Below are positions 254 through 57,890 of a stretch of 64,000 bases of DNA, one piece after another; the stretch's first letter is position 1; each line of letters starts with the position of its first letter. A program made the translations under genes and the position numbers. Below the pieces are notes generated by a model. It had not been told where the DNA came from, did no database searches, and was given only the letters and a program-made list of their open reading frames with translations. This stretch comes from an uncultured Gammaproteobacteria bacterium (GTDB lineage Bacteria > Patescibacteriota > Patescibacteriia > UBA9570 > XYC2-FULL-38-9). The stretch is taken from the NCBI GenBank assembly GCA_964344485.1, contig CAYFNF010000005.1, forward strand, positions 23,455 to 87,454, read 5' to 3'.

Positions 254-358
254 GATTAGTCATTTTGATAATGGGGAGAGAGTACCTATTAACAAAATGA
301 AATACTGAACAGAGGAGCATTCGCATCAATTCAGAACATTGAAATCTTTTCGGAACTT

Positions 359-390
359 CTCATTGCAGCGGTACACACAGCTGCAATGAG
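359..390 (+). promoter_or_regulatory. 11-bp perfect stem-loop in the 5-prime leader of the islet A gene
   Basis: ctcattgcagc (359-369), loop ggtacacaca, gctgcaatgag (380-390). No T-tract follows, so it is not a classical terminator. It sits exactly at the AT-rich/GC-rich junction, 18 nt before the GAGGAGG RBS (409-415). Confidence 0.5.
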
Positions 391-422
391 AAGCATCGAG
401 GAAAACCCGAGGAGGAATCACC

Positions 423-923
423 ATGCGATCCATCGCTGCTTTCGCAAGTTTCGGTATCATCGTGAGTGTCGCGGCATCCGGATGCGGCCCCTGGCCCTTC
501 GGGGAGGTCTGCGACCAGCGCAACCAGTTGCTGTTCGCGGGCATCCTGTCCGAGTCCAGCGGCCCGCAGTGCACGTCGCACGACTACGACGACGACGGGC
601 ACGACGCGGCGTACGACCAGGACGACCGGCTCGACCGGCACGACAACAACTGGTACGACCCGGCCGACGTGTACCCGGACGGCCCGGACGGCTCGCACAT
701 CGGCGACATCTCGTGGTGCATCGTCGAGGAGACGGGCCCGGTCGACGACTACGACGTCGTCTACGACTGGTCCTGCATCCGCGACTACTGGGCCGACCGG
801 CTCGACGAGCTCTGCGAGGCCTGGGAGGACGGCACGTTCGACCTGGAGGAGCACTCGATCGACTCGCTCGACGAGGCCCACTACCAGCGAGAGGCAGACG
901 CCTACGAGGAGTACTGCACCTAG
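423..923 (+). CDS. Islet A: small secreted acidic Cys-rich protein, putative lipoprotein (166 aa)
   Basis: GAGGAGG RBS 7 nt before the ATG. N-terminal hydrophobic signal with a lipobox-like VAASGC. Mature part is Asp/Glu-rich with 7 Cys. GC content far above host. The overlapping ORFs in other frames are Arg/Pro-rich frame shadows. Confidence 0.55.
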   Translation: MRSIAAFASFGIIVSVAASGCGPWPFGEVCDQRNQLLFAGILSESSGPQCTSHDYDDDGHDAAYDQDDRLDRHDNNWYDPADVYPDGPDGSHIGDISWCIVEETGPVDDYDVVYDWSCIRDYWADRLDELCEAWEDGTFDLEEHSIDSLDEAHYQREADAYEEYCT

Positions 924-1198
924 CTGGTTCGACCAGCACGTCCCCGCCGCCGCACCACCGCCACACGACGACACCGACTACCGCGCCGGGCGAACCCGGC
1001 ATCCCTAGGTGGGTCGACTGTAGCTTCCATGCACAGCAGTCGACACACCGCTTCCCCTGGCCTGGACTATTACGTCAAGGCAAGAGGAAGCATCATTAAT
1101 AGCTGCGCTTCTCGCACCACTCACTCGACTACAAAGAGCCGTCTTCGCGGCACACGTAGTCTCGTGAGCGCTGCTGCAGCGCTATATCAGTTAAACTT

Positions 1199-1285
1199 AA
1201 AAAGCGCGGAGGTGATATTGCCGCAGGACGGTTGGCCCAGCGAGAGCTGGGTTTTAGTCCGAGGTAATATCACGGAGCGCTTTTT
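1199..1285. other. Nested stem-loop element (long A5/T5-flanked hairpin with an internal GAGA tetraloop hairpin)
   Basis: aaaaagcgc(1199-1207)/gcgcttttt(1277-1285) outer stem. ggtgatatt/aatatcac inner stem. cccagc-GAGA-gctggg at 1236-1251. Lies between islet A and the 3-prime end of tRNA-Met. Confidence 0.4.
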
Positions 1286-1297
1286 AATTTATGATTG

Positions 1298-1371
1298 TGG
1301 CAGGGGTGAGAATTGAACTCACGACCCCAGGCTTATGAGTCCTGTGCTCTAACCAACTGAGCTACCCTGCC
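1298..1371 (-). tRNA. tRNA-Met (anticodon CAU; elongator type, or possibly tRNA-Ile2 with lysidine)
   Basis: Reverse complement: GGCAGGG TA GCTC AGTTGGTTA GAGC A CAGGA CTCATAA GCCTG GGGTC GTGAG TTCAATT CTCAC CCCTGCC A. 7-bp acceptor, GTGAG/CTCAC T-stem, CAT anticodon. G1:C72 argues against initiator. CCA is not encoded. Confidence 0.85.
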
Positions 1372-1424
1372 ATGGGACACGACACAGAGTATATAAAAAA
1401 AAGGATAACTTGTCTAGTCTGCGT

Positions 1425-2705
1425 TTATACTGCACGAAAATCCTCAGTTCGAACTACCTGTGCCAACACATTTGCAGAACAATGAACACTCCCGCGAGCT
1501 TGATGTGTTGCTAAGTCACGAACTGGAATTGGAGTATACCCAGCCTGAACGTACGTTTCGTATGCTCGTGCTGCTTTGCCAATTAAATGCTCCTGTGTAA
1601 TTTCGTCGATACCGTCCGCTCCTTCTTGTAGCTCATTTGGAAATACTGGAAACAGTATCTTCTTCTCTCCTGTATTTTTATCAATATACGGAATTGCATT
1701 CACAGAAGTACGCACCATCCATGCATCGTCGAATTCATCATTTTCAATGGTGAATACTCGATACCCTAGGTCCTCCAGCTGTTGCTTCATTTTTTCATGA
1801 AGTTGTACTAATGAGGAGGACTGAATCGCATCACCGTATTGATTTACCACAGCAGTGTTGTCTGCTAGGAGGATAAATGATTGATCGAGATGGGCAAAAA
1901 AATCAAATCCATACCTTGCTTCTCCCATAAACACCACTTCTGCTCCAGGAAACTGTGCCTGAATAAGCTCAAGCACCCGTTCTTGATTAATCTGTTGACC
2001 TCGCCGTTTATATTCATTAATAGTTCTGCTAATTGTATGATGCCCTACGAGTACTCGTAATCCTTTTTCTGTGCGATCAAATGTCATATCTCCGCCCTCG
2101 AATGCAAATGGTGCCTGCACAACGTTCATAGAACTCTCTAGCTGTTTTCCTACAGCAACTCTTTGAGCTGCGCGTTGGTCATCAGGAATACTGCTTATTG
2201 GAATTGCGTCCATGGAAATGAGAAATGCATCTTCACCATCAACAGTAATCGGCTCTCCATAATCTTGCGCCCACACCTCGAGCCTTTCTGTCTCAGCTGG
2301 TAGTATATGAAATGTTGCCTGGTTTTGTATTTGTAGCTCTTGCAAAGCAGACTTCATATGCTCCACCATGTCTTCACGTACTACAATCTCAAGATGTGTA
2401 TACTCAGGAATATTTCTTAAAAGATCCTGGTACACTCGACGCAAATGCCCACGTATAATATCAACTGGTCTATCTTTGGCTCCATGAATAGTTGTCGGGA
2501 CAGTAAGAAGAAGCTTTTCTAGATGCCGCTCATATTCCGGAGTTGCCATCACTTCATGTGTTGGCTCTTGCTCTGTTGCTGGCCTCGGATCTTCTGCAAC
2601 ATATTTCAAAGCAGCGCGAGCTGGTGTGGGGACTGCAGCAACTCCTGCTGCAGCTGCTAAACCTTGCAATACCTCCCTGCGTGTTCTACCTCTACCTCTT
2701 TTCAT
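1425..2705 (-). CDS. Agmatine deiminase / Porphyromonas-type peptidyl-arginine deiminase family protein with a twin-arginine signal
   Basis: N-terminal RRxxLQGLAAAAGVAAVPTPARAA Tat-like signal. FEGGDM motif and a C-terminal G-S-V-H-C-S nucleophile motif like AguA's GGNIHCITQQ. Confidence 0.7.
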   Translation of the reverse strand: MKRGRGRTRREVLQGLAAAAGVAAVPTPARAALKYVAEDPRPATEQEPTHEVMATPEYERHLEKLLLTVPTTIHGAKDRPVDIIRGHLRRVYQDLLRNIPEYTHLEIVVREDMVEHMKSALQELQIQNQATFHILPAETERLEVWAQDYGEPITVDGEDAFLISMDAIPISSIPDDQRAAQRVAVGKQLESSMNVVQAPFAFEGGDMTFDRTEKGLRVLVGHHTISRTINEYKRRGQQINQERVLELIQAQFPGAEVVFMGEARYGFDFFAHLDQSFILLADNTAVVNQYGDAIQSSSLVQLHEKMKQQLEDLGYRVFTIENDEFDDAWMVRTSVNAIPYIDKNTGEKKILFPVFPNELQEGADGIDEITQEHLIGKAARAYETYVQAGYTPIPVRDLATHQARGSVHCSANVLAQVVRTEDFRAV

Positions 2706-2714
2706 ATTATTGAA

Positions 2715-4499
2715 TTACTTCCACCCACTAATACGCGCCCCTCCTTCAAACCCTTCAGCAAAAACACGCTCATTGAATAGTACAGTTTTTGCTTTGGTAT
2801 ATCGATACACCTTCACCCACGCCTCACCGTCTCCAGCCTGACTCACTAGAATCTCATCTTTTCCATCTTCTTCCCAGTCCACCACACTCACATCTACAGG
2901 TCCGGTAAATCCTGAACCAAATGGAGTGATCTTCCTATCTTTTTTATACCCACTGAGCTCCATAACGCGCACGACTCCTTTTTTATCACCACCAGAACCA
3001 ATAATAATCTCGTCCTTCCCATCATCATCAACGTCTCCAGCAGCGACATTTACTCCACCGCGATAGCTTTTCTTAAACACACGCGAGACATCGCCGCGTT
3101 TCCCATCCTCACTCAACACCGTTACTTTTGATAGTCCATCACTTAGCCCAACAACAACTTCATCCACTCCATCTCCGTCAACATCCCCTGCTGCAACGTC
3201 CACGCCTTTCTTATGTGCTTTTTTAAATGGTTGCTTCTTCCATAACAAGGTTCCGTTGCGTTCATACGCTCGAACCTGCACAGTTTGCCCCGGACCCGAT
3301 CCAACGATAATCTCATCCACTCCATCTGCATCAATATCTCCGGTTGCAATACTCCCACCGTTCTTTCTCTTGGCAGGGAACGCCTTAAAATTATTTAACT
3401 TTGTTCCTTTGCGTGTTAACACATGTACCTTGGATTCATCGCCAGCTCCTTTTAGCGTTACAATATTATTCGCACCATTACCGGTCACATCACCAACTGC
3501 TACGTCACCTCCGCCTTCCCAGGTCTTTTTATAGACTCGAAATGCTTCATCTTCATCACCAGTTTGATAGTACGTCTTTACTGCTCCGTAACTGGGCGCT
3601 CCACTCATAACTGCTGCAACTCGGGTATAACTCGCGTTCCACTTCTTTTGTACATACGTAGTGTCTGTGGTGCTCCGCCCTTCTCCATCTTTAGCAGTGG
3701 CTCGCAAGTACAACTTCCCGTCATCAAACTCAGATAAATAGGATGAAAATAGATACGGATAGAATGACCCATCAGTTGCAGTAGTAATAGTCTCCCAGGT
3801 CTTTTTCCCATCATCACTCGCCTCAATCTTTAACGACTGTACACCACTGCCTAAATCACTCGCATAGACGTATGTTGCAAACCCATCACCGATCACATCC
3901 CCTTTCTCTACACTCCAGCTCACCTCTGGGTCCCATTTGTCTTCAATTAAATGATTAGGAATATAGACTTCTGGATCGTACCAATCATCTTGAGTATCTA
4001 AGTCAGTCACATGGCCATAATACACCCACTCTCCTGAGTAAGCACTTTTATGAATGCCAAAATGTAGATGCGGAGTCCAACCACCATTATCTGCTTGGCA
4101 GCCGAGCACGCCGATCTGATCACCAGCCTCAACTCGATCTCCTTCAGAGACCATCAACACCGACGGCCGCAGATGTCCGTATAATGAAACAATATTCTTA
4201 CTCGGGCGCTCATGTTCGATCAAAATTACTAATCCAAACTGAGACCGTTCAGCCACATCAACGACTACACCATCTGCTGTTGCATAGACCGGCCCGCCTG
4301 ATCCAAATTCAAATCCAGCATCTACACCCATATGGTAGTACCCGCTAGAAAACGTGTCTCCGTGTTCCGTAGTGACATTCCACGAGGACAGTGGATAGAT
4401 AAAATTATCTGCGACTGCAGCACTTACAGGAGAACCAGAGAAAACAAAACACCCAAGAGTGAACAAGAGTGTTATGGAAAAATTTCTAAAAAATATCAT
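2715..4499 (-). CDS. Secreted M23 (LytM-type) metallopeptidase fused to FG-GAP/VCBS-like repeats
   Basis: Signal peptide. HMGVDAG (HxxxD) and PHLHFGIH (HxH) M23 motifs. C-terminal repeated GDVDGDGxDEIIVG integrin-alpha-like repeats. Confidence 0.8.
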   Translation of the reverse strand: MIFFRNFSITLLFTLGCFVFSGSPVSAAVADNFIYPLSSWNVTTEHGDTFSSGYYHMGVDAGFEFGSGGPVYATADGVVVDVAERSQFGLVILIEHERPSKNIVSLYGHLRPSVLMVSEGDRVEAGDQIGVLGCQADNGGWTPHLHFGIHKSAYSGEWVYYGHVTDLDTQDDWYDPEVYIPNHLIEDKWDPEVSWSVEKGDVIGDGFATYVYASDLGSGVQSLKIEASDDGKKTWETITTATDGSFYPYLFSSYLSEFDDGKLYLRATAKDGEGRSTTDTTYVQKKWNASYTRVAAVMSGAPSYGAVKTYYQTGDEDEAFRVYKKTWEGGGDVAVGDVTGNGANNIVTLKGAGDESKVHVLTRKGTKLNNFKAFPAKRKNGGSIATGDIDADGVDEIIVGSGPGQTVQVRAYERNGTLLWKKQPFKKAHKKGVDVAAGDVDGDGVDEVVVGLSDGLSKVTVLSEDGKRGDVSRVFKKSYRGGVNVAAGDVDDDGKDEIIIGSGGDKKGVVRVMELSGYKKDRKITPFGSGFTGPVDVSVVDWEEDGKDEILVSQAGDGEAWVKVYRYTKAKTVLFNERVFAEGFEGGARISGWK

Positions 4500-5045: not shown

Positions 5046-5776
5046 AAATCGTTGACGCTAGATTTTAATTTTTCATCTTGGATGAACTTCACAACAATCC
5101 ACTTAATTAAGCGAATCCATAAGGAGAAGACAACCGAAGTGGCAATAAACACTGCTTTTCCAGATGGCAAAATAATAGTTGCGAGGTACGTTCCGATCGG
5201 CAGGCCTATAAGCAGCGCTTTATCGATGGTAGAAGCTTCATGATAGTGTTTTACCTTCCGAATCGCCTGATGAAAGAATACCACAGCAGCAGCAAACAGT
5301 GAAGCATAGGTGTTTGGCACAATCATATTGAACCAGCCGAGAAAGTATGGGTCGATTACCCCTGGGTCTGGCATGAACCCATATAGTTCATTATGTCCAA
5401 TAGTCTGAAGCCCTGATGAAAAAATACTATAAAGTACTACTAAAATTACCAACTGGAACACCAAAGAGAGAAAATTCGACATGACTCCAATCTTGTTTCG
5501 CTGCAACAATGACTTTATAGCTTCTCGCTGCTTTTGAACGTTGTACTTATATCGAACCTTAATTTGGTCAATTAATGGCTGCAATCGTTCGAGTCGGTGC
5601 TCTGAGCGTGCGGAACGAATGGAGAACGGGAGTAGAACAACACGAATAGAAATAGTAAGAAAAATAACCGCTAGTCCCATGTCCTTGCCAGGTGAGACGG
5701 CGTAGAAAAAAATCAACAGATTGTATAACGGCTCATATAAACCGTCGTACCAGACAAACTGAATAAAGTTGATCAT
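5033..5776 (-). CDS. yidC: Membrane protein insertase YidC/Oxa1 (short type)
   Basis: GLAVIFLTISIRVVLLPFSIRS and RLQPLIDQIKVRYK motifs aligning to SpoIIIJ/YidC. I use the internal ATG at 5776 (MINFIQFVW) as the start, because the upstream 76 codons of the long ORF run through the yidC promoter and islet B in another frame. Confidence 0.8.
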   Translation of the reverse strand: MINFIQFVWYDGLYEPLYNLLIFFYAVSPGKDMGLAVIFLTISIRVVLLPFSIRSARSEHRLERLQPLIDQIKVRYKYNVQKQREAIKSLLQRNKIGVMSNFLSLVFQLVILVVLYSIFSSGLQTIGHNELYGFMPDPGVIDPYFLGWFNMIVPNTYASLFAAAVVFFHQAIRKVKHYHEASTIDKALLIGLPIGTYLATIILPSGKAVFIATSVVFSLWIRLIKWIVVKFIQDEKLKSSVNDLWTS

Positions 5777-5782
5777 GTCTAT

Positions 5783-5811
5783 AGTATAATTGAAATTATG
5801 GAAAAAGTCAA
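5783..5811 (-). promoter_or_regulatory. Putative yidC promoter (TTGACT, 17 bp, TATACT); transcript likely leaderless
   Basis: Minus-strand TTGACT (5806-5811), 17-nt spacer, TATACT (5783-5788), ATG 7 nt downstream. Confidence 0.4.
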
Positions 5812-5873
5812 CGCGTCCGCACAACCGTTTGCGGCAATATTTAACTATATCTGATAAAAAAGGGCCTTCGACT

Positions 5874-6398
5874 CTACTTCGTTCGTTGGTCTTCGTGTTG
5901 TGCCTCCGGGGGCCACGATCCGAATCGCCGAGCGATCGCTGCTTGTACTGGTTCGCTGACCTCTTCCATTGGCCAGTGGTAGTATTGAGCACGGTAGTGT
6001 GCACTGGGGCACTCCACTCGTATACTCAACCATCGTTCAGGATTGTCGCTAGCGCGAGCAACCTCTACCAGTGCCTCATCGGTTTCGACTGGCCAAAGCA
6101 CAAGCCTATCGAAGATCGCATTCTTGAGCGTGTACATGCTGGAGACCGTGCTGTTATTGAACCGCAAGCGGCGCAAGCAGATCTGCAAGCCGTACAGCAT
6201 GGAGCACAGGAGCGTGAGTGTTCCAGACCTGGTTGGCGGGTTCCACCGCTCACTTCGCAATACGCCAGCTGCTTCGCCGGCATGCGTTCCAAGCCTGTGC
6301 AGCACCTCCCTGTTCGGATTGTGGCTGACGAGCAGCCCCTCTCTTGAAGCGTGGTCGAAGGCTCTCTCACACCGCTGCAGCACCGTCATTCCGTTCAC
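5874..6398 (-). CDS. Islet B: hypothetical protein (174 aa, GC-rich)
   Basis: GGAGGTG RBS just upstream (plus 6402-6408). GTG start at 6398 or ATG at 6389. Globular-looking sequence (DRLVLWPVETDEALVEVARASDNPERWLSIRVECPSAHYRAQYYHWP). GC ~57% against ~40% host. The other-frame ORFs are shadows. Confidence 0.5.
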   Translation of the reverse strand: MNGMTVLQRCERAFDHASREGLLVSHNPNREVLHRLGTHAGEAAGVLRSERWNPPTRSGTLTLLCSMLYGLQICLRRLRFNNSTVSSMYTLKNAIFDRLVLWPVETDEALVEVARASDNPERWLSIRVECPSAHYRAQYYHWPMEEVSEPVQAAIARRFGSWPPEAQHEDQRTK

Positions 6399-6484
6399 TG
6401 CACCTCCGCGTTGAATCTACATGGTGTTATGAGAAAGCGATCCTACACTAATGAATCTCACGACTATTGTCAATACTCTACTGT

Positions 6485-6520
6485 AAAACAAAAACAAATC
6501 CCCCTCAGTGACGAGGGGGA
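6485..6520 (-). terminator. Rho-independent terminator of the giant surface-protein gene
   Basis: tccccctc-agtgac-gaggggga 8-bp stem (6499-6520), followed on the minus strand by a T-rich tract (plus 6483-6498 gtaaaacaaaaacaaa). Confidence 0.6.
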
Positions 6521-6538
6521 CTGTATGACGTGAACGAT

Positions 6539-17063: not shown

Positions 17064-17127
17064 AAGTATGATTATTTCGTTAAGTATATGTACCTCATAT
17101 CCCAATGACGGGAACTGGAGGGTGAAA

Positions 17128-17697
17128 GTGAGTGACTTTGTCAGGCGCGTGACCACGGTCAAGGCGCCTCATGGTGAATACAGGTTCACGCTGCAGAGCA
17201 CGGTGCAGCGTCGCGTCGAAGACCTCGAGGGGGCCGAAGCGCAGGCTGCGGTTCGTCGCATGCTGGAAGCGCTCGGAGTCTCCGAGGAACACGCCAACCA
17301 GATGCGTACGAACGACCTGCGAAGTGCATGCGAGGTCAAGCCGTTCCAGATCGATCATCCGGCGCAAGACGCGTACATCAACATGTCGGATCCGGCTCGT
17401 GCATCGGAACGAGTGGCCGTACCTCCCTCAGGTGGCTGCGTGCGTGCAGGTAGCGGTGCTCAAGTCGACGTGCCGCCTGGTTGTTCCCGTGTGGGCGACC
17501 AAGTGGCACCGCAGATGCCACCGCCAGCGCTCGTAGCTCTCTCGCAGAGTGCTCGGCCTGCTACCGCAGAACCGCACCTCCCGCCGGATGCGCTCCGAGA
17601 CGGCCAAGCCGTACCCGTACTCGACCCACAGCCTGTGGGACGATGGGCGCGCTTCTGCGCCTGGTGGCACCGACAGCGTCGGTCATGGGGTTGGTAG
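17128..17697 (+). CDS. Islet C: hypothetical protein (GC-rich; C-terminal half low-complexity, possibly frameshifted)
   Basis: GGAGG at 17117-17121, 6 nt before GTG 17128. First ~100 aa look globular (EYRFTLQSTVQRRVEDLEGAEAQAAVRRMLEALGVSEEHANQMRTNDLRSACEV). The remainder is Pro/Ala-rich. Several overlapping shadow ORFs exist, so strand and frame are uncertain. Confidence 0.35.
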   Translation: MSDFVRRVTTVKAPHGEYRFTLQSTVQRRVEDLEGAEAQAAVRRMLEALGVSEEHANQMRTNDLRSACEVKPFQIDHPAQDAYINMSDPARASERVAVPPSGGCVRAGSGAQVDVPPGCSRVGDQVAPQMPPPALVALSQSARPATAEPHLPPDALRDGQAVPVLDPQPVGRWARFCAWWHRQRRSWGW

Positions 17698-17748
17698 CCC
17701 AAGCGTGAACGCGCTGCTCTGACCGAGTCGGAGGAAACCGGTCTTTTT

Positions 17749-25813: not shown

Positions 25814-25963
25814 CAGCGCTCACTTCAGAAAGCCCCTGCCAACGCGCAGGGGTTTTTTAATTTGCACAGACTCCACAGGATTGACAAATGCATCCTGTGC
25901 TGTATACTTGGACGATTTCCTCAAGAAGAGGTAAATCAGAGCCCCAAGTCCAGGAGGGACACT

Positions 25964-26420
25964 ATGGCTCGAATCTTGATGCTCGCCGCGCTCCTGCTCG
26001 TCACCGCCTGCAAAGACAAAGGTGACACCGACCGGGGCCTGCTGGCCATCAACCACATGGGCTACACGGTCAAGGTCTGGGTCTACCAGTCCTACGACTC
26101 CACCGGAGAGCAACAGCTGTGCGTGGACCAGGACCGAACAGCAGCTCACGAGCTCCTCAACGCTCCAGGACCAGGAAGAAGATGACCTGGAGTGGGATCC
26201 CGAGGACGAGGTCGACCTGTCCGCGAACTGCGACACGGAAGACACGTCCACAGTCTGCCCCGAGGAGTTCACCCCGTGCATCATCCTGCGTGTCACCGAC
26301 ACAGAGGGCAACTGGGACGTCAAGTCCGACCCAGCCATGTGGTACGACGGCATCATCTGCCTGATCACACCCGCAGACAGCGGCGACTCCGAGCAAGGCG
26401 ACGGCATCACCTGCGGCTGA
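25964..26420 (+). pseudogene. Islet D: lipoprotein gene split by a frameshift (N-terminal lipobox part 25964-26185, acidic Cys-rich C-terminal part to 26420)
   Basis: AGGAGG (25952-25957), 6 nt, ATG 25964. MARILMLAALLLVTAC lipobox. The frame ends at 26185, while the +1 frame continues with the protein-like LQDQEEDDLEWDPEDEVDLSANCDTEDTSTVCPEEF...ITCG to 26420. Both halves are GC-rich. Confidence 0.45.
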
Positions 26421-26480
26421 ACCAACGACTGGAACAGCTCGCACCCAGCGTGCATGAATCCGTCGGGCGCTAGAACGCAC

Positions 26481-26517
26481 GCGCCACGGACCAATGCTCT
26501 TTTTTTATTGCCGAAAC
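26481..26517 (+). repeat. 38-nt direct repeat, copy 1 (gcgccacggaccaatgctctttttttattgccgaaac)
   Basis: Near-identical to 31473-31510 (1 indel, 1 substitution). Both copies are on the plus strand. Confidence 0.7.
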
Positions 26518-31472: not shown

Positions 31473-31510
31473 GCGCCACGGACCAATGCTCTTTTTTTTA
31501 TTTCCGAAAA
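31473..31510 (+). repeat. 38-nt direct repeat, copy 2 (gcgccacggaccaatgctcttttttttatttccgaaaa)
   Basis: Begins 4 nt after the regulator stop codon. See copy 1 at 26481-26517. Confidence 0.7.
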
Positions 31511-31537
31511 AAAACCGTTGTTCCTGAAACAGGAAGC
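31505..31537 (-). terminator. Terminator of the islet E gene (ttcctg-aaa-caggaa then T9 on minus strand)
   Basis: Stem 31521-31535. The minus-strand continuation is caacggttttttttt. Confidence 0.5.
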
Positions 31538-31551
31538 GAACGGTGAGAACG

Positions 31552-31944
31552 CTACGGGGTGGTGTCCGGACGCAGGTCAGCGATACGCTGCTGCGTGGGC
31601 GGATGCATCTCGGTGAGCTCCATGAGGTGCTCCCACACCTCCAAGGTCATGGTCGTGCCGCCCATCAGACCAAGCACGAACTGCTCCTTGGTATTCATCC
31701 GGATGCGGATGTTCAGGTACCGGCCCTGGCGCCAGACCCGAGTGATCGATGCGTAGCTGTACTGCCCGAACATGACCTGATGCAGTACACGCATTTCGAG
31801 GTCGAACACGAAGATGCTGCCTGCATCAGCGTAGATCACGGTCCGTGCTTCTGCACGGAACAGCAGCCAGTCCACGGTGTGGAACGGCCGTACCACGATC
31901 TCGCGGATACCCCGTGCTCCCTTTAGGATGACGTCGTTTGCCAT
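31552..31944 (-). CDS. Islet E: hypothetical protein (130 aa, GC-rich)
   Basis: GGAGGAAG RBS (plus tcctcc 31952-31957), 7 nt before the ATG at 31944. Better amino-acid composition than the antisense 31543..31926 ORF. Confidence 0.5.
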   Translation of the reverse strand: MANDVILKGARGIREIVVRPFHTVDWLLFRAEARTVIYADAGSIFVFDLEMRVLHQVMFGQYSYASITRVWRQGRYLNIRIRMNTKEQFVLGLMGGTTMTLEVWEHLMELTEMHPPTQQRIADLRPDTTP

Positions 31945-31970
31945 TGGCTCTTCCTCCGGTGGTTGCGTAG

Positions 31971-32014
31971 ATAAGCAAAAGCGCCTCCCTGCAGGGAGAC
32001 GCGTTCTTGCTTAT
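31971..32014. promoter_or_regulatory. Long (~19-bp, interrupted) palindromic hairpin upstream of the islet E RBS / downstream of OCD-2
   Basis: ataagcaa-aa-gcgcctccctg|cagggagacgc-gtt-cttgcttat centred on CTGCAG. It could be the OCD-2 terminator or a leader structure analogous to the islet A hairpin. Confidence 0.4.
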
Positions 32015-32214
32015 ACACACGACACATCCACTACAGGGGCTCTGTAGAGGATGAAGATGAAACAAATTGTCTTGTTTGCTTCGTATGCATGCACCTAGTG
32101 TATAGTGCTCAGCATATTTGTCAAATGGGCGTGATTTTGATTCACAATTCGCCACGTTTGCCCCATTATTAAGGCGTAATTGCACTCGCTCGATTTGTTG
32201 TTTCTAACAACACC

Positions 32215-33312: not shown

Positions 33313-33611
33313 GAAAAGATGATTATTATATAGTTAACAATTCATACCGCATCCGGGGGGAAATTCGAACACAGGGGGAACTGGCATGGTTCCGTATTCT
33401 GAATACTGTTTTGTGCGGTGTTTGTGATTCATAAGTGCACGTAGTATATACAACGTCATAACTACTGTCAATTATGTGCCTCTCATTGACAGAAACTCCT
33501 GTAATGATACATTCAAATTGAAGTAGCGGTCTTGTAGACTGCAGATAGAAAACGAGGGGGCGTCCCTCTATTTTTGTCTGCAGCACTCAACCGCTGCTAT
33601 CGGGATCATTC

Positions 33612-33989
33612 ATGCATCTGCTTCTACTCGTTCAGACCGCGTGGTACCACCGGAGCCAGGTGGTGCAAGATCGCATTCGCCGACAATTCGACCGCAACGT
33701 GCCAGGCGTCGTCCTGCCTCGGGCCGTGGTCGGAGGTGACGATCAGCTCGACGAAGCGCTCGCTCGCGCCGCGTTCATCACGCTGCTGACCAGCATGACA
33801 GGCGACGCCAGCAGCTTCCAGGTGGTCAGCTACACCCTCGAGCGGCGTGGCGACGACGAGCTGTGCTTCACGTTCGACCTCGAAGAGTCCGGCTGGACTT
33901 TCAAGCGGCCACAGCCTGGTGCGCATCACGTCTCCACCATTCGAGTGCGACTCGTGGACACCAGCACGCTCGCTGTGGTCGAGGCCTGA
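33612..33989 (+). CDS. Islet F: hypothetical protein (125 aa; strand ambiguous)
   Basis: GC-rich ORF. The antisense 33624..33929 ORF also has a GGTGGAG RBS, so the coding strand is unresolved. A plus-oriented hairpin plus T-run (33554-33575) precedes it. Confidence 0.3.
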   Translation: MHLLLLVQTAWYHRSQVVQDRIRRQFDRNVPGVVLPRAVVGGDDQLDEALARAAFITLLTSMTGDASSFQVVSYTLERRGDDELCFTFDLEESGWTFKRPQPGAHHVSTIRVRLVDTSTLAVVEA

Positions 33990-34135
33990 CCCAAGGCTAG
34001 CAGTCCGGGTTCAGACCCACACTGCTCCTTGCAGAGCCGCATCCCACGCGACGCCATTTCTGTACAATCGACGTCTCGGCCTCTCGCGTTCTTTTTTATT
34101 ACAAAGCCGCGCACTTGATGGCGCGGCGCTTGTTG

Positions 34136-34146
34136 GCACCCGCACG
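34136..34146 (+). repeat. Degenerate duplicate of the tRNA-Glu 3-prime segment (gcacccgcacg + gaatcg..cc.gg)
   Basis: 11/11 identical to 34299-34309. About 24 of 29 nt are similar over the T-arm / acceptor 3-prime half. It lies 163 bp from the intact tRNA, at the edge of islet F. Confidence 0.4.
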
Positions 34147-34299
34147 AAGAATCGGTTCCGGGGTTGGCGGTAGCGTGCCGCTGGCACCCTACCGATCGTT
34201 CAGCTGCGCTACGCTTGCTTCACTTCCAACCCTTCAATTTCCCGCCGCAGGATAATTAAAGAAAATCCGCCCCTCTTTGAGGGACGGATTATTCTTAAG

Positions 34300-34371
34300 C
34301 ACCCGCACGGGGAATCGAACCCCGGCTGCCAGGATGAAAACCTGGTGTCCTAACCACTAGACGATGCGGGC
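34300..34371 (-). tRNA. tRNA-Glu (anticodon UUC)
   Basis: Reverse complement: GCCCGCA TC GTCT AGTGGTTAG GACA C CAGG TTTTCAT CCTGG CAGC CGGGG TTCGATT CCCCG TGCGGGT G. Anticodon loop TT-TTC-AT, discriminator G, no CCA. Terminator-like hairpin at 34262-34292. Confidence 0.85.
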
Positions 34372-39562: not shown

Positions 39563-40000
39563 ACGTTTTTTGTTATTAATTATTCCGCATGGAATTTAAA
39601 AATACCGTGCGTCGACAGTATATACGATATATAGAGCATTCTATTACAAAAACAAATGCCCCGCAATAATCAGCAGGCAAGAGAATGTATACACGGAAGA
39701 TTCGAGCCGTAGCCTGAATTTTCCGAGGTACACCTTCCCATGCTTGTCGTGCCTGCTGGTTACTATGGGGCATGACGTCAGCACCATTCTTATAAAAAGT
39801 AGCAAATTCACATCACAGAGTACTGCGATGAGAACATAGAAGAATATCATGGTTTTTCCGTTTTGTCAAGAGTAAATCATACACATGTTTTTCCCAGTTA
39901 AAAATGATATTTTTTAGCTAATATTAGGGTAAAAAAAACGGACGTGGTGAATGTCCGGGCTCATACTAGAGCCGTTGCCTACGTTCAGAGTCGAGGCGTA

Positions 40001-40942
40001 TCAGAGCCGACCTGCTGCACTCAGCACCGCGTGCAGGGTTCCGGTCGTGGAGACCGGGTTCTGCCACTGGACCCACCAGCAGTGTGCTTCGTCGATGCAG
40101 TGGTGATTGACGGTCGCGGACCGTTCTTGGCACATCATGCGCTCGTGCAGCCTCAGGGAGAAGATCGTGTCCTGAAGGCAGCTCACGATGTGTCGGGTAC
40201 CTGCCCAGCCTTCGCGACGCACTCGGGCGATCTCGGACTCTCCCCAGCCGTAGAAGAGCACCAGCTCCGGGAACAGGCGCGCTGAGTCGTTGGCCATGAG
40301 GCGCTCGTAGTCTTCGGCCAGGTCGCAGGGGCAGCCCGTTCCGGTGAACAGGTAGCGCACGGGCCAGCCCGTGTAGTGCATCCCTTCTCCGGAGGTCAGC
40401 GCGTTGAGAACACCCAGCAGCTCCGGGGTCGCACCCACCCACATCTTGGGCTGGGTCAGTGCGAACAGTGGGAAGTCCGGAACCGGAGCGATCTCGACCA
40501 GGTGCAGCGGGTTGATCACGGCGTGAAGCAGCAGCAGCTGCCGGCAGAGCAGCGCACCGAGCGAATGGCCGACCAGCGACACCTTTTGGTGCTCATCCAG
40601 AATGCCGTCCCAGTACAGCGACTCCATGATCGCGACCAGGTCCTGGATCTGCTCCTCCAGCGGTTGAGAGCCCAGGCCAGGCGGACGCCAGGCAGTCCCG
40701 ATCCCGTTGCGCTCCACCACCACGATGGTGTTGGGGAGCTCGTGGAGTTCAGTCCTGTTGATGGTCGTGCACCAGGTGGACCAGCCGCGTTGCTGGTAGC
40801 CGTGCACCAGCACCAGTGCCGGGCTCGTCTTGTCACCCAGGCGAGCATGCACCAGGCGCACACCCACCGAAGTGTTCAGCTCGTGCGTGTTGAAGCCCAT
40901 GCCTCCCATGGGCCTCGTGTCTCGACAGTGTTCCATCTTCAT
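40001..40942 (-). CDS. Islet G: alpha/beta-hydrolase (lipase/esterase, GHSxG nucleophile elbow)
   Basis: LVLVHGY oxyanion region and VSLVGHSLGALL nucleophile motif. GC-rich. Hairpin cggac-N9-gtccg plus T8 downstream (minus strand) at about 39950-39976. Confidence 0.75.
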   Translation of the reverse strand: MKMEHCRDTRPMGGMGFNTHELNTSVGVRLVHARLGDKTSPALVLVHGYQQRGWSTWCTTINRTELHELPNTIVVVERNGIGTAWRPPGLGSQPLEEQIQDLVAIMESLYWDGILDEHQKVSLVGHSLGALLCRQLLLLHAVINPLHLVEIAPVPDFPLFALTQPKMWVGATPELLGVLNALTSGEGMHYTGWPVRYLFTGTGCPCDLAEDYERLMANDSARLFPELVLFYGWGESEIARVRREGWAGTRHIVSCLQDTIFSLRLHERMMCQERSATVNHHCIDEAHCWWVQWQNPVSTTGTLHAVLSAAGRL

Positions 40943-41084
40943 GATCCTTGTTCAGCATCTTGCCGAACTGTTCGAGGCGCGGATATTTTATAGAAATGAA
41001 TATAAAAGTCAATAGGAAGCACTTGCTTTTTTGCCTATTTTTTCGTATAGTAATAGAGAAGTAAAGCAAAACAGCCCTATAGAC

Positions 41085-42111: not shown

Positions 42112-42393
42112 ATGGAAATTCCATTCTACATCTTACTCATTCTCTATCTAGTCGGTATTGCGATATTCCTTGTGTGGATGTTCTTCAACTTATGGCATCT
42201 GTTTAAATTCGGATTCTTTGACTTTACTGGAAAACTGAATGCGTTTATCTTTGTCGGATTCTCCATTGCAATCTTTGTTATCACCCTGCTGTTGTTGAAA
42301 GACACTCCATGGTTCGATGCATTTGATCCGATCACAAGCTTTTCAGGTGAATGGGTAGTAGAGCAAGATCCTACGTTTAACTCAGAGATATGA
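42112..42393 (+). CDS. Small membrane protein (93 aa, two TM)
   Basis: Hydrophobic. Start 1 nt after the ruvB stop, and its stop overlaps the next gene. Confidence 0.5.
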   Translation: MEIPFYILLILYLVGIAIFLVWMFFNLWHLFKFGFFDFTGKLNAFIFVGFSIAIFVITLLLLKDTPWFDAFDPITSFSGEWVVEQDPTFNSEI

Positions 42394-44506: not shown

Positions 44507-44646
44507 TACTAATCGTCCTTTTTGACAAACCGAACCACTATGGTAAGGTACTACGTCAGAAAAGGTTGACGACTGAGAAGACCGCGCACAGTACTGCGTT
44601 TTTTTCTCAGGCGTGAACGTCAGCGCCTGCCTCAAGAGGAGGAACG

Positions 44647-45201
44647 ATGAGACTCTTACTGCTCATCGCAAGCATGATGCTCGTGGGGTGCCCCAAGCAA
44701 GCGCCCCAAGGACCGCTCCCCGGGGAGCACATGCCACGCGTACACGCGGAACCCGGCCCCACAGCCGGCGACTGCACGTCCGTGGTCACCTTCGAGTGGA
44801 CCGGACACCCGGACTACGACACGCTCTACGTGCTCATCAAGCTCGAGGGGCAGTACTTCGGTGTCGGGGCTCGCCTCGAGGAGCCGGACGTGACGTACGC
44901 GGCGTGCGTGGACTACCCGCTCAAGTGGCTCGGTGTCATCCAGTTCTACACCAACCCCCTGCCACCGGGCGTGAACATGAACCCGGACCCGCAGTGGGAC
45001 ACCATCCCGTGGTCCTACTACGGCTGGGAGCCGGCCACGTTCAAGCTGCCCTCGACTACGGTCTGGAAGCGTGAGAGGGGCGCCAGCGGCCACACTTCGG
45101 CCATGGTCAAGACCGAGGTCCCGGTCGGGCTGGTCATCCGCTTCTACCCCGGAGCGGAGCAACTCTCAACACGGCCCGGAATCCTCTACATGGAATTCTA
45201 G
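44647..45201 (+). CDS. Islet H: lipoprotein (184 aa, GC-rich)
   Basis: GAGGAGGA RBS 5 nt before the ATG. MRLLLLIASMMLVGC lipobox. The alternative-frame ORFs are shadows. Confidence 0.55.
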   Translation: MRLLLLIASMMLVGCPKQAPQGPLPGEHMPRVHAEPGPTAGDCTSVVTFEWTGHPDYDTLYVLIKLEGQYFGVGARLEEPDVTYAACVDYPLKWLGVIQFYTNPLPPGVNMNPDPQWDTIPWSYYGWEPATFKLPSTTVWKRERGASGHTSAMVKTEVPVGLVIRFYPGAEQLSTRPGILYMEF

Positions 45202-45233
45202 GCTCCAGCGCGAGACATCAGCTTTTTTTTATT

Positions 45234-50412: not shown

Positions 50413-50417
50413 CACCC

Positions 50418-53167: not shown

Positions 53168-53251
53168 GCTGTACACAAAATGTACTCAATAGGGGTCGAC
53201 AAACGGCCGTTTTTAGGATATAATTACTAAACCAAAACAAAAACAAAATGT

Positions 53252-55165: not shown

Positions 55166-55181
55166 GGAGCCTACTCGCGTC

Positions 55182-56993
55182 TTATTCTGTATCATTTAAA
55201 GACCCTTCGAAATCGTGAAATTCTAGTGGTACATTTGTGTATGCATCTGGGATAGGCAGCTTTCCATCACCATTAGGGTTATACCCATTTGCTGTCTCCT
55301 CTCCGTCTAGATATCCATCGCCATCGGTGTCTTCATTCAGAGGGTCTGTTTCATAAATCTGCTCATAATAGTCATCAAGCTCATCACCATCGGTGTCTTT
55401 TTTGTTTGGATCACTGCCAAATGCATCTTCTTCTAGATCAGTAAGGCCATCGCCATCGGTGTCTTTTTTAAAATCATCAACAAGGTCTTGCGGATCTGGC
55501 GAGATAGTATTGTCGATAGTCTTTGACATATCTGCAGCTATCGATGCAAGCACCTCTTCTAAGCTAGTATACTCAGTTGGGAGGTCGGTGCTCACTGCCT
55601 TATTGTGATCCCACAATTCTACAGTCAACGTGCTAGAGATCACGGTCGCACTGTCGTCCTCTTGTTTCTTAATTAACAGTTTATACGGTTGAAAGTCTTT
55701 TTTACCAACCCAGATCTCTCCGGTGAGAGTGTCGGTTTTCTTGGCAAAGTCAATCATATCAAAGACTTCGAGTGTTGGAGCAATACCAGTACGTTGTACT
55801 TGATCTAAAAATGCAAAGTACTTCTCTTGATCAATAGTGATATAGTAATGGCTGGTATTCGTTCCTTGAACTTTCTCTGAATTTATCTTATCTCCAAGAA
55901 CCACGAACGGATGTTGACGGAACGCTTCTTGAATAATAGTAATATCCTCTTGCTCGATTTCACCTTCTTCATCTTTAGAATCAATACCTGGAAGAGTGCT
56001 TGGTGGTAGTGTTGGGACCTCTAAGTCTTGGTCAAACCGTATCCATTGGCCCTCTAACATACCGAGGTCTGTACCCATGAACTCTGCATTATCAGGAAGT
56101 TCGCCAAGCTTTACGTATATTTCCCCGTTTTGATACTTCACTTCTGCATCTAAGGTAAATGGGTCCCCTTCAGTAAGAAGCTGCACGGTCGCTTGCATGT
56201 ATCCAGCACTTTGATCTGGGTCTAGAATAGTAGTAGCTCCTTGCGCTTGCAGTAGCAACCCATTTACTTCCTGTCCACCGAGTAATTCACCAAAGTCACC
56301 GCCGGATTGTGGTTTAAGCTGCTGTCGAATCTCAACAGAATACGATGCAGACTTCAGTGAAGCAGCGTTCTCAAACATCGAATTCGCAACTCGTTCTGGG
56401 GACTGGTAGTAATGATAGTAGGCATATACTGCTGACCCTGCGATTGCCACAAGTAATGCAATAATCACAACAAGTCCAATGATTTTAGTCTTTGTGCTTA
56501 ACCCTTCTTTAATTACTGGCTGCTGCGTTCCCCCTGATAGTGCTTTGCTTTTCGCTGGTTTCGCACTAGCTGCGCCGGGATCCATAGCAGGCTCTGCCAT
56601 CGGACCGAGCTGACCTGCCGGTGCCTGCGGCTGTTCAGCAGCTCCTGGCTGCGCACCGATATCAAAGATGTCTTCAGGCTCTCCAATGACTGGCTTTTGT
56701 GCGGGCGCTTGTGTCGCGGCAGCTCCTGGCTGCGCACCGTCAGCAGGCATCTGTACACCAAGGTCTTCTCCAAACGATGCTGGAGCTTGTGCATCATCAG
56801 CAGGAAGAGGGGGCAAGCCTGGAGTTGCTGGTGTCCCAGCGTCAGGTCCTGCTGCGATTCCAGCTTCTGCAAATGCCTCTTCGATGTCAGCTGCTTCCCA
56901 GCCGTTGCTCAGCAGTGCTTGGCGGATCTCCTCCGGATTCTTACCTTGCTGCTGTTGATTATTAATAAAGTTCTTTACTTCTAGACTAGTCAT
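55182..56993 (-). CDS. Membrane-anchored protein with Ala/Pro/Gln-rich linker and C-terminal thrombospondin-type-3 Ca-binding repeats
   Basis: Cytoplasmic N-terminal 40 aa, low-complexity APQ region, one TM, extracellular domain, then DTDGDGLTDLEED / DTDGDELDDY / DTDGDGYLDGEE repeats. Confidence 0.65.
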   Translation of the reverse strand: MTSLEVKNFINNQQQQGKNPEEIRQALLSNGWEAADIEEAFAEAGIAAGPDAGTPATPGLPPLPADDAQAPASFGEDLGVQMPADGAQPGAAATQAPAQKPVIGEPEDIFDIGAQPGAAEQPQAPAGQLGPMAEPAMDPGAASAKPAKSKALSGGTQQPVIKEGLSTKTKIIGLVVIIALLVAIAGSAVYAYYHYYQSPERVANSMFENAASLKSASYSVEIRQQLKPQSGGDFGELLGGQEVNGLLLQAQGATTILDPDQSAGYMQATVQLLTEGDPFTLDAEVKYQNGEIYVKLGELPDNAEFMGTDLGMLEGQWIRFDQDLEVPTLPPSTLPGIDSKDEEGEIEQEDITIIQEAFRQHPFVVLGDKINSEKVQGTNTSHYYITIDQEKYFAFLDQVQRTGIAPTLEVFDMIDFAKKTDTLTGEIWVGKKDFQPYKLLIKKQEDDSATVISSTLTVELWDHNKAVSTDLPTEYTSLEEVLASIAADMSKTIDNTISPDPQDLVDDFKKDTDGDGLTDLEEDAFGSDPNKKDTDGDELDDYYEQIYETDPLNEDTDGDGYLDGEETANGYNPNGDGKLPIPDAYTNVPLEFHDFEGSLNDTE

Positions 56994-57116
56994 AGATCTT
57001 ATTTACTATTGTTATATGGTATAGAATACCATGTTTTATATGTAAAAAAAAGCTACATAACCACAGGTGCGTTCATGTCTTTTTATGGCCATAAAAAAAG
57101 CCTCCTCAAGATCACG

Positions 57117-57803
57117 CTACGATGCAGGGGTCTCGGGCAGGAGCTGGGTGAGCGCCTTGATGCCGGCGTGCGTGATGACGATGCCCTCCTTCTGGCTGAT
57201 CAGCCAGTCTTTGCGCGTCCAGTCCGCGAACACTCGGATCACGGTCTCTTCGCGCGAGCAGACCATGGTCGCGTAGTCCCTGCGTGCCAGGCGCAGTGCC
57301 ACGAACTGACCACGAGCATCGTTGGGAACTGCGAACCGTGCGCCCATGTCCAGGAGCAGACGCGCCAGGCGGATCTCGACTGCGTCGCGGATCGTCAGGT
57401 CCGCTTGTCGTCGAGCGTGGTCCACCTTGTTGGCGAGCGACTCCATGATCAGTCGGCAGACCAGCGGGTCCTCTTCCATGAGCTGGCGTAGCGCCTCTCG
57501 TTCGACCTGGAGTGCCTTGATCTGGTCCAGGGCCGTGAGCGTGATCGGACTGGGGTTGCCCGTGACCACTTCGACCTCTCCGACCAGGTCGTGCCGACCG
57601 ATCAGACCCATGGTGAACGTGGTGCCGTCACCGAGCAGGTGTTCGATCTTGGCTGCTCCACAGCACAGGAAGAGTACAGGTGAACTGGGATCGCCGCGAT
57701 GCCAAATGATCCGATCTCGCGGGAAGCGAACGACCGTGGCGAACGGCCCCAGTAGCTGTTGGGTGGTTGTCGGTGGAGTGGATGCAGGTGGCAAGATTGC
57801 CAT
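57117..57803 (-). CDS. Islet I: Crp/Fnr-family transcriptional regulator
   Basis: cNMP-binding beta-barrel (ILFLCCGAAKIEHLLGDGTTFTMGLIGRHDLVGE) and C-terminal HTH (RRDYATMVCSREETVIRVFADWTRKDWL). AAGGAGA RBS 6 nt before the ATG. GC-rich. Confidence 0.75.
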   Translation of the reverse strand: MAILPPASTPPTTTQQLLGPFATVVRFPRDRIIWHRGDPSSPVLFLCCGAAKIEHLLGDGTTFTMGLIGRHDLVGEVEVVTGNPSPITLTALDQIKALQVEREALRQLMEEDPLVCRLIMESLANKVDHARRQADLTIRDAVEIRLARLLLDMGARFAVPNDARGQFVALRLARRDYATMVCSREETVIRVFADWTRKDWLISQKEGIVITHAGIKALTQLLPETPAS

Positions 57804-57832
57804 CGCAAATCTCCTTGCTTAGGTGCAGCCGT

Positions 57833-57861
57833 ACCTTACGGGATTCTATTTTTTTCGTCAA
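57833..57861 (-). promoter_or_regulatory. Possible promoter of the islet I gene (TTGACG, 17 bp, TAAGGT)
   Basis: Minus-strand TTGACG (plus 57856-57861), 17-nt spacer, weak -10 TAAGGT (plus 57833-57838). Confidence 0.3.
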
Positions 57862-57864
57862 ATA

Positions 57865-57890
57865 TAAAACGCCCAAATGGGCGTCTTTGT
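57865..57890. terminator. Bidirectional terminator hairpin acgccc-aaat-gggcgt between tRNA-Ala and the islet I gene
   Basis: tataaaACGCCCaaatGGGCGTctttgt. Confidence 0.5.

Follow-up and report, generated by a model that had tools for sequence, protein, structure and literature searches.

How do nine short GC-rich stretches, each apparently holding a single small gene, come to lie between the housekeeping genes of a low-GC bacterial genome, and why do most of them carry strong Shine-Dalgarno (SD) sites when the genes around them do not? This question is raised by a 64,000-nucleotide stretch of contig CAYFNF010000005.1 from an uncultured bacterium (hereafter the window), in which the nine stretches, called islets A to I below, were pointed out by an initial annotation. 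The islets are shown here to be compositionally and translationally foreign DNA. The explanation that we consider rather likely to be right is that they are horizontally acquired, moron-like single-gene units from a gene pool of high GC content that uses SDs and has not been sampled. The islets are listed below with the GC segment returned for each by two-state segmentation and with the free energy of the duplex between leader and anti-SD sequence (kcal/mol); the promoter-like sites and the T-runs at 3' ends are predictions, consisting of consensus matches only.

Islet A, 355..1295, plus strand: 5' leader hairpin of 14 bp at 355-392, SD GAGGAGG (energy -11.8); GC segment 461-1182 (GC 0.661).
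Islet B, 5855..6475, minus strand: TTGACA-type promoter-like site in AT-rich DNA, SD GGAGGTG (energy -10.8); GC segment 5902-6410 (GC 0.587).
Islet C, 17100..17745, plus strand: SD GGAGGG (energy -9.8), open reading frame (ORF) 17128-17697; GC segment 17144-17741 (GC 0.654).
Islet D, 25881..26506, plus strand: promoter-like site 25881-25908 (TTGACA-16-TATACT, 11/12), SD AGGAGG; GC segment 25941-26492.
Islet E, 31499..32124, minus strand: promoter-like site 32124-32097, leader hairpin 32002-31981, SD GGAGGAAG (energy -9.5); GC segment 31536-32003 (GC 0.603).
Islet F, 33590..34260, plus strand: ORF 33612-33989 of 125 aa, SD not strong (energy -4.1); GC segment 33637-34214 (GC 0.637).
Islet G, 39931..41012, minus strand: promoter-like site 41012-40985 (TTGACT-16-TAAAAT), hairpin and T8 terminator at 39931-39960; GC segment 39939-40924 (GC 0.642).
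Islet H, 44607..45230, plus strand: leader hairpin, SD GAGGAGGA (energy -12.0), T8 run; GC segment 44610-45179 (GC 0.660).
Islet I, 57090..57861, minus strand: promoter-like site TTGACG-17-TAAGGT (~57861-57833), SD AAGGAGA (energy -8.5), T-run; GC segment 57115-57792 (GC 0.636).

The borders of the islets were taken from the two-state segmentation together with a sliding GC profile over the window. The segmentation returned exactly nine segments, the same ones that had been listed beforehand, each 0.47-1.0 kb long and with a GC content of 0.587-0.661 (59-66%, against 44% for the surrounding genome, hereafter the host). Host windows of 400 bp have a mean GC content of 0.443 (sd 0.037); on this scale the islets stand at z = 3.9-5.9, and the recalculated profile is not uniform but rises in steps of that size. 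Together, the islets account for 5661 bp, or 8.8% of the window. They are dispersed across 57 kb on both strands, each lying within the contig between intact host genes, as had been annotated.

The contrast extends to codon usage and to the dinucleotide signature. The GC content at third codon positions (GC3) of the islet genes is about 0.66-1.0, compared with ~0.4 in the host, and their codon preferences are of the high-GC type (CTG/CTC, GGC, CCG, ACC). The dinucleotide relative-abundance distance (delta*) between two halves of the islet pool is only 44, while either half lies 137-146 away from the host; for random 600-bp host pieces the distance to the host is 94 +/- 31. The islets have one common dinucleotide signature, distinct from that of the host. 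In A and F, the gene is followed by another 220-370 nt that are GC-rich but show no codon periodicity; hence, the high GC content belongs to the inserted DNA and not only to the choice of codons. An all-against-all comparison of the nine islets revealed no mutual similarity, which shows that they are not copies of one element, and an Rfam scan of the window returned five tRNAs only and no islet match, so that the islets are not known structured RNAs.

Two other GC-rich segments, 43118-43426 and 56518-56936, were set aside as Pro/Ala/Gln-rich low-complexity parts of host proteins; the former is the C-terminal tail of the protein encoded at 42390-43436, and this tail has no counterpart in the orthologue of the nearest sequenced relative (L001, see below). 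Adenine depletion of the kind left by diversity-generating retroelements was considered and rejected, as the AT skew of the islets shows no loss of A on the coding strand. A halophilic donor, to which the very acidic proteins of A and D could point, was rejected as well, since acidity is not found in the other islet proteins and, in a moderate form, is common to the host proteome. The proteins of A, B, C, D, G and H contain 2.3-3.6% Trp and 2-5% Cys (host proteins: 1.2% and 0.85%), and several of these residues in A and G are among the conserved positions of their families.

The initiation signals set the islets apart from the host as well. Upstream of A, B, C, D, E, H and I, the energy of the anti-SD duplex lies between -8.5 and -12.0 kcal/mol; it is weak, at the first ATG, for F (-4.1) and G (-5.2). 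The 34 host genes have a mean of -1.3 and a median of -0.7, and a strong SD is found in none of them (0/34), in line with the host genes that had been annotated as SD-less. Within the islets, 3.5% of the 22-mers reach -8.5, and the chance probability of seven strong sites among nine is ~2e-9; given this background rate, the strong SDs are not a by-product of the GC content. The start of C was picked with the SD in view, which biases that single case. A GGAGG-type SD had been claimed for every islet; strong sites bear this out for seven of the nine, the signals of F and G being weak.

Near-consensus sigma-70-like sites were found upstream of D (11/12) and of E, F and G (10/12 each), ranking within the 16 best of 20 kb, and similar ones were read by eye for B, H and I. 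They sit in AT-rich, host-like DNA. A T-run closes most islets, and a clear hairpin is seen in E and G. With promoters in AT-rich DNA and T-runs at the 3' ends, the GC-rich span of an islet corresponds approximately to the predicted transcribed unit. Several host genes, on the other hand, have a -10-like hexamer directly before the ATG, which suggests that leaderless mRNAs, or mRNAs with a very short leader, may be the normal mode of initiation in this organism. The starts of yidC (5772-5830) and ruvB (41040-41087) illustrate this arrangement: both read TATAGAC ATG, with the hexamer TATAGA right before the start codon.

Could such sharp steps in composition be due to chimeric assembly, to wrong binning or to an artificial construct? 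Apart from the extreme sharpness of the steps, this possibility is fed by the fact that the source genome and its relatives are all metagenome-assembled. The exact proteins of I, E and QueA are present in NCBI records, on a contig of 122,270 bp. An ENA contig from a different assembly (k127_42363, here L081; MEGAHIT assembly ERZ930068, run ERR2281803) matches window positions 43005-45171 over its 2167 bp with one mismatch (99.95% identity) and spans the junction between queA and H. Since this contig crosses from host to islet, the islets are not an artefact of one assembly; the support covers 1 of the 18 islet junctions. The islets also lie inside the contig, between intact host genes, with no common repeat long enough to mislead an assembler, and the same architecture recurs in JGI, Logan and ENA contigs of other samples. 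A chimera, one of the explanations put forward at the outset, is excluded for the queA-H junction and implausible for the remaining ones, and an artefact as a whole has a negligible chance of being the answer. L081 ends inside islet H, ~60 nt short of its right border, which may be due to chance in a low-coverage assembly or to strain variation.

The host genes of the window are bacterial genes for housekeeping and for the cell envelope, among them those for RuvB, QueA, a SpoIID-like protein, an arginine decarboxylase-like enzyme, YidC, M23 peptidases and valyl-tRNA synthetase (valS). Among 185,579 species representatives, the nearest genome is a metagenome-assembled genome of Candidatus Kerfeldbacteria (L001), the RuvB of which is 73% identical, and a metagenome scan with RuvB yielded no closer relative. 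From its gene sequences, the host is placed as a Kerfeldbacteria-like member of the Patescibacteria. Gene order is conserved between the window and L001 over 35.8-46.3 kb, a region that includes G and H, the two islets covered by the comparison of insertion sites. At the H site of L001, the 3' ends of queA and the spoIID-like gene share 4 nt, where the window has 727 bp; there is, hence, no room for H. At the G site, an RNA-like element lies ~200 bp from ruvB in L001, without G, while in the window the 1.1-kb G unit stands between them. Both sites are thus empty in this relative, and the compared loci of other relatives hold no comparable islets. In the Logan contig L084, the G site is occupied by a different gene: a G homologue of only 30% identity, with a GC content of 0.49-0.50, beside the same RNA-like element.

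This RNA-like element, 119 nt long, is itself of interest (window 39654-39772, minus strand; L001 9708-9822; L084 1414-1532). It is 87-89% identical in L001 and L084 (89% in L084), has a promoter-like site of its own (TTGACA-17-TATTCT) and is predicted to fold into a long rod-like hairpin of 45 pairs, three of them with compensatory changes. There was no Rfam match even at E = 1. Located upstream of ruvB and on the other strand, the element is a candidate small RNA of a kind not yet described.

A high-GC host bacterium of this presumably epibiotic lineage had been named as a conceivable donor. A word-indexed search of 5.8 billion proteins with I returned only I itself; by tblastn against plasmids, its best matches are 24-30% identical, mostly from Actinobacteria. 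H had no match among the same 5.8 billion proteins, and E forms a singleton cluster in a clustering of 15 billion proteins. For A, two homologues (46% and 52% identical) were found in the 5.8 billion, P0040 and P0041, on contigs of 4.1 kb and 2.0 kb, respectively; they have conserved Cys and acidic motifs, from which A is seen to belong to a real family. An exhaustive HMMER search with G against 1.84 billion representatives gave 35 hits, the best of which, other than G itself, are 38%, 36% and 31% identical. No match to G was found in plasmids by tblastn, no relative in a metagenome scan with the alignment of the G family, and none of I, the G family or H in IMG/VR. A literature search on PRJEB17505 and on GC-rich islets in genomes of the candidate phyla radiation (CPR) brought up nothing specific. 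A high-GC bacterium is, therefore, not demonstrable as the donor, no high-GC genome holding a close homologue.

The relatives of G that could be located in their genomic context are the following.

P0006, contig L082 (JGI): gene GC 0.65, flanks 0.45-0.50; adjoins tRNA-Met.
P0007, contig L083 (Logan): gene GC 0.61, flanks 0.39-0.49; beside SD-less genes for a HIT protein, HisRS and a signal peptidase.
P0012, contigs L167/L168 (ENA and Logan): gene GC 0.62-0.66, flanks 0.31-0.41; lipobox; beside RluA-like and CorC genes.
P0008, contig L084: gene GC 0.49-0.50, flanks 0.43-0.46; directly upstream of the 119-nt RNA-like element.
P0013, contigs L085/L086: gene GC 0.44, flanks 0.33-0.35; in a four-gene, SD-bearing block between SD-less genes.

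P0006, P0007 and P0012 are single-gene islets of 61-65% GC in contigs of 31-46% GC from other datasets, each in a different neighbourhood. L082, L083 and L167 have a promoter-like site of the TTGAC(A/T) type in AT-rich DNA, accompanied by a GGAG-type SD in L082 and L083; at the 3' end, L083 and L167 have a terminator hairpin and L082 a T-run. All four GC-rich members of the G family examined are islets in low-GC contigs. Closest homologues in the same lineage at a similar GC content would, by the initial annotation, have counted against its reading; such homologues do occur in similar low-GC genomes but, unexpectedly, as islets there too. A compositional proxy for GC content, calibrated on the six family members with known DNA, predicts that the GC-rich members are scattered over the family tree. 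The cargo families seem, as far as their sequence relatives indicate, to be confined to CPR-like genomes.

Two side observations concern these contigs. The four-gene block at 1298-5185 of L085 (GC 0.43-0.45) encodes, besides the G-family hydrolase, a histidine phosphatase, a Usp protein and a cation efflux protein. Each of its genes has a strong SD, and the block lies between SD-less genes with a GC content of 0.33-0.35; it repeats the SD and GC contrast of the window in a milder, multi-gene form. A further protein, P0042, on a Logan contig of 57,532 bp, is at least 90% identical to the islet hydrolase of L082.

Judged from their reading frames and domains, the islets carry genuine genes, including three for lipoproteins, one for a Crp/Fnr regulator and one for a hydrolase with an intact catalytic triad. 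One clean GC3 frame is seen in five of them, A, E, G, H and I. The gene of A (423-923) encodes an acidic, Cys/Trp-rich lipoprotein of 166 aa with the lipobox ASGC; its GC3 is ~1.0, in one frame only. The 3' part of this islet consists of ~370 nt of GC-rich, non-periodic DNA with a terminal hairpin between an A-run and a T-run (~1200-1287); tRNA-Met (1297-1371, minus strand) adjoins it with its 3' end. E encodes an orphan protein of 130 aa (31552-31944) in a single clean frame with a GC3 of 0.80, followed by what reads as a hairpin and T-run terminator at ~31545-31508. The gene of G (40001-40942; GC3 0.82, single frame) encodes an alpha/beta hydrolase with a GHSLG motif and a match to Abhydrolase_6 (PF12697, 3.4e-8) above the cut-off; the Ser-Asp-His triad (S125, D256, H285) is invariant in 14 members of the family. 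This islet is located between the promoter of the conserved RNA-like element and that of ruvB. H starts directly after the queA terminator (44584-44606) and ends at the stop of the SpoIID-like gene (45234); its gene (44647-45201, GC3 0.87) encodes an orphan lipoprotein of 184 aa with the lipobox LVGC. The gene of I (57117-57803) encodes a Crp/Fnr-family regulator of 228 aa with the domains cNMP_binding (PF00027, 2.3e-15, residues 25-112) and HTH_Crp_2 (PF13545, 3.6e-9, residues 145-211), both above gathering scores; its promoter-like site adjoins the 3' end of tRNA-Ala (57889-57963, minus strand). The Pfam matches agree with the functions first proposed for G and I, and the lipoboxes of A, D and H likewise belong to convincing lipoprotein signal peptides.

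The remaining islets are less regular. In D, the lipoprotein starts at 25964 (lipobox VTAC) but does not stay in frame: near 26120-26140, the GC3 phase passes to the frame ending at 26420, which encodes the acidic C-terminal part, and the frame of the lipoprotein start meets a stop at 26185. D is probably a pseudogene. C, between the start of valS (~17052, minus strand) and the stop of an HD-domain gene (17749), shows a switch of GC3 phase near 17190-17370; only its first half is protein-like, and in a six-frame reading the second half fits the codon phase of the minus-strand frame 17670-17428. This islet is probably composite or decayed. In F, the phase switches near 33720, making the first third of the ORF doubtful as to frame, and the 3' part consists of ~270 nt of GC-rich, non-periodic DNA abutting the 3' end of tRNA-Glu (34299-34371, minus strand). 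B, between a host gene of 1546 aa and the yidC promoter, is weaker in GC content and has a mixed GC3 phase; its ORF (5874-6398, 174 aa) is followed by a short hairpin and a T-run, and the product has no homologues and no Pfam, NCBIfam, PHROG or PADLOC match. The long ORFs of C, F and, less clearly, B may in part be shadow ORFs. At least one islet is decaying, as shown by the frameshift of D and the phase switches of C and F. The initial description of exactly one small gene for each islet fits A, E, G, H and I; it does not fit the frameshifted D, and the frames of C, F and B are doubtful. PHROG and PADLOC (defence-system) scans of all islet products gave nothing meaningful, and AlphaFold2 models of E (single sequence) and A (three-sequence alignment), with a predicted local distance difference test (pLDDT) score of ~41, were not used.

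How the islets entered can be approached from their borders. As annotated, three of the islets abut the 3' ends of minus-strand tRNA genes among the five in the window: A at tRNA-Met, F at tRNA-Glu and I at tRNA-Ala. The integration into tRNA genes that this position had suggested finds no backing, there being neither an integrase nor a duplicated tRNA 3' end, and in A, F and I no 9-mer is common to the tRNA and the distal border. Integrase, transposase and reverse-transcriptase domains were not found in or beside the islets. Over the window as a whole, the host genes of which are only partly annotated, a recombinase, integrase or reverse transcriptase did not come to notice either. The islet borders show no consistent direct or inverted repeat of at least 8 nt, no target-site duplication and no common end motif, nor do the islets have in common a family of 3' inverted repeats (attC-like hairpins). 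The T-runs flanking H were considered as a target duplication and dismissed, as the other islets do not hold the same pattern.

The only exact repeat of note at islet borders, 26 nt long, is as follows.

Direct repeat GCGCCACGGACCAATGCTCTTTTTTT, copy 1, 26481-26506, plus strand: right end of D.
Direct repeat, copy 2, 31473-31498, plus strand: immediately left of E.

The copies are exact, their likeness runs ~12 nt further, and no copy is expected by chance with up to three mismatches. They bracket a 5-kb accessory operon block of lower GC content (0.30-0.42), with genes for a PALP enzyme, an ornithine cyclodeaminase-like protein, a class V aminotransferase, an unknown protein and an AsnC-type regulator. 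Because the repeat brackets this block, D and E were probably once a single convergent two-gene islet, split later by a separate 5-kb insertion.

Elsewhere in the window, the minus-strand gene 2715-4499 lies in a region (2600-3600) of very strong negative GC skew, down to -0.54. It contains three diverged 150-nt repeats (2998, 3148, 3301) and encodes a secreted M23-peptidase protein with repeated Gly/Asp-rich (FG-GAP-like) units.

We propose the following course of events. A typical unit would have one ORF, preceded by a sigma-70-like promoter and a strong-SD leader and closed by a hairpin, a T-run or both. The units would stem from one kind of SD-using gene pool with a high GC content (~65-70%), absent among the sequenced high-GC genomes and possibly belonging to unsampled high-GC relatives or partners; the same pool would also seed islets of this kind in further CPR-like genomes that are low in GC and SD-less. 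Entry would take place by uptake of DNA, followed by illegitimate or flank-homology recombination, with no integrase or transposase involved. Islets that land behind a host-type promoter, or gain one later, would be expressed and kept, mostly in accessory surface or regulatory roles, and the others would erode. Natural competence has been shown in Saccharibacteria (PMC10633639). A survey of Patescibacteria (PMC12455944) attributes up to 13% of genome length to horizontal gene transfer and places 83% of single-gene transfers between Patescibacteria.

The foreign composition with its single signature, the SDs, the GC-rich non-coding tails, the two empty sites and the decaying copies give good support to the repeated horizontal acquisition that had first been suggested; the high-GC, SD-using donor itself was not found, and several observations count against the proposal in this and other respects. 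Among 5.8 billion proteins, I, H and E find nothing more than ~35-40% identical, and the hits of G in 1.84 billion representatives are few. The GC3 of ~1.0 in A implies very recent entry, with nothing similar sampled. None of the six G-family contexts examined is a high-GC contig, and a single ancient insertion does not explain the divergent homologue at the G site of L084. The predicted borders of the islets are roughly those of the transcripts, which random capture of fragments would not lead one to expect. Finally, the mode of insertion is deduced purely from the absence of mobility hallmarks.

Alternatively, the islets could be fragments of the genome of the epibiont's own high-GC host, captured recently and directly by the competence and pilus machinery. 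The single dinucleotide signature, the high-GC codon usage with GC3 values up to ~1.0, the SD-led genes and the GC-rich non-coding tails are all as expected from such a source; the best of the weak tblastn matches of I are from Actinobacteria, the group on which the cultivated, naturally competent Saccharibacteria live (PMC10633639). An abundant host, however, should have been sampled, while I, H and E find no protein above ~40% identity, and the nearest relatives of G are islets in low-GC contigs and not genes of high-GC genomes. The actinobacterial matches, at 24-30% identity, may reflect a shared composition, and neat single-gene units with host-like, AT-rich promoters are not arbitrary fragments. 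We regard direct capture as unlikely, though deserving of attention. A related and more speculative idea, to which we give a smaller chance, is that a hidden high-GC, SD-using reservoir (the hosts of epibionts or a co-travelling extrachromosomal element) continuously and recurrently feeds ready-to-express modules to several CPR lineages, in place of sporadic transfer; in a bolder version, the modules would keep foreign codons and SDs because, like T-DNA, they serve to function in the high-GC partner.

The islet genes could, conversely, be long-standing members of a flexible pool, kept GC-rich in situ, either through selection acting on the mRNA or protein or through GC-biased conversion as alleles are frequently replaced at fixed loci. 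This would account for homologues of 31-38% identity that are all GC-rich islets in low-GC contigs, for the scatter of GC-rich members over the G-family tree, for the very divergent homologue at the same site in L084, for the conserved catalytic triad and for the match between GC-rich span and predicted transcribed unit. Yet no known bacterial process keeps the GC3 of a single gene at ~1.0 in a genome of 44% GC; the non-periodic DNA and the frameshifted D stay GC-rich without coding constraint, the G and H sites are empty in L001, and the G family also occurs at GC contents of 0.44 and 0.49-0.50, as amelioration would give. The chance that maintenance in situ is the explanation is slim. A dedicated, undescribed system of cassette insertion, with a site-specific recombinase or retroelement elsewhere in the genome and preferred intergenic sites, would be in keeping with the uniform modular anatomy, the three islets at tRNA genes and the L082 islet at tRNA-Met, the two G-family genes at one site in different genomes and the exact 26-nt repeat at the borders of D and E. 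The ends of the islets, though, lack a common motif, attC-like hairpins, target-site duplications and inverted repeats, the partly annotated window gave no sign of a recombinase, integrase or reverse transcriptase, and the 26-nt repeat brackets a lower-GC block rather than an islet. With no consistent repeat, end motif or integrase to support it, the mini-cassette mechanism raised by the initial annotation is very improbable.

Acquisition from an unsampled high-GC pool, the preferred explanation, bears on two of the main unknowns for Patescibacteria, their hosts and gene flow: the islets would be compositional fingerprints of a partner organism, if the source were identified. Were the idea of a hidden reservoir true, a specific gene channel from host or element to symbiont would exist that could be used to identify the hosts of CPR bacteria. 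The islets are, moreover, a natural test of SD-dependent expression of foreign genes in an SD-independent cell. If no source exists, the persistence of GC-rich genes in AT-rich genomes needs a new explanation.

Compared with known systems, the islets are unusual in lying so densely, in being modules of one gene each, in their SD contrast to the host and in that no donor was found. Integron cassettes are also one-gene units, usually with their own ribosome-binding site; they are, however, promoterless, arranged in tandem arrays by an integrase and bounded by attC sites, none of which is seen in the islets. From transposons and insertion sequences, the islets differ by the lack of terminal inverted repeats, target-site duplication and a transposase domain. 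With genomic islands, as treated in the amelioration model of Lawrence and Ochman, they have in common atypical GC content, codons and signature, absence in a relative, proximity to tRNA genes and decay. In contrast to such islands, the islets have no mobility genes or att repeats and hold one gene each, nine of them in 64 kb, and their cargo has no high-GC donor or close homologue and recurs as islets in low-GC genomes. The single-gene transfers surveyed in PMC12455944 concern the same phylum, and its figure of up to 13% of genome length is comparable to the 8.8% found here; the predominance there of transfers between Patescibacteria fits the restriction of homologues to CPR-like contigs. That survey needs a donor among metagenome-assembled genomes and deals mostly with old transfers (average divergence 23.7%), and GC-rich, SD-led modules in SD-less genomes are not described in the part of it considered here. 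The replacement-type flexible islands of Rodriguez-Valera and colleagues resemble the G site, where two genomes hold versions of 30% identity beside one conserved flank. Here, the replacement is seen at one site and one flank, while those islands are usually multi-gene glycosylation clusters of lower GC content.

Phage morons, described by Hendrix and colleagues, are single genes that stand between conserved genes, with a promoter and terminator of their own and a deviant composition. The islets, unlike morons, are found not in a prophage but among chromosomal housekeeping genes (valS, ruvB, queA, yidC) and tRNA genes, without PHROG matches or relatives in IMG/VR, and their contrast of ~20 GC points is far above what is usual for morons. 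In their organization, the two are alike: the islets, too, are single genes of deviant composition with their own predicted promoter and terminator, carrying accessory cargo of the lipoprotein or surface type.

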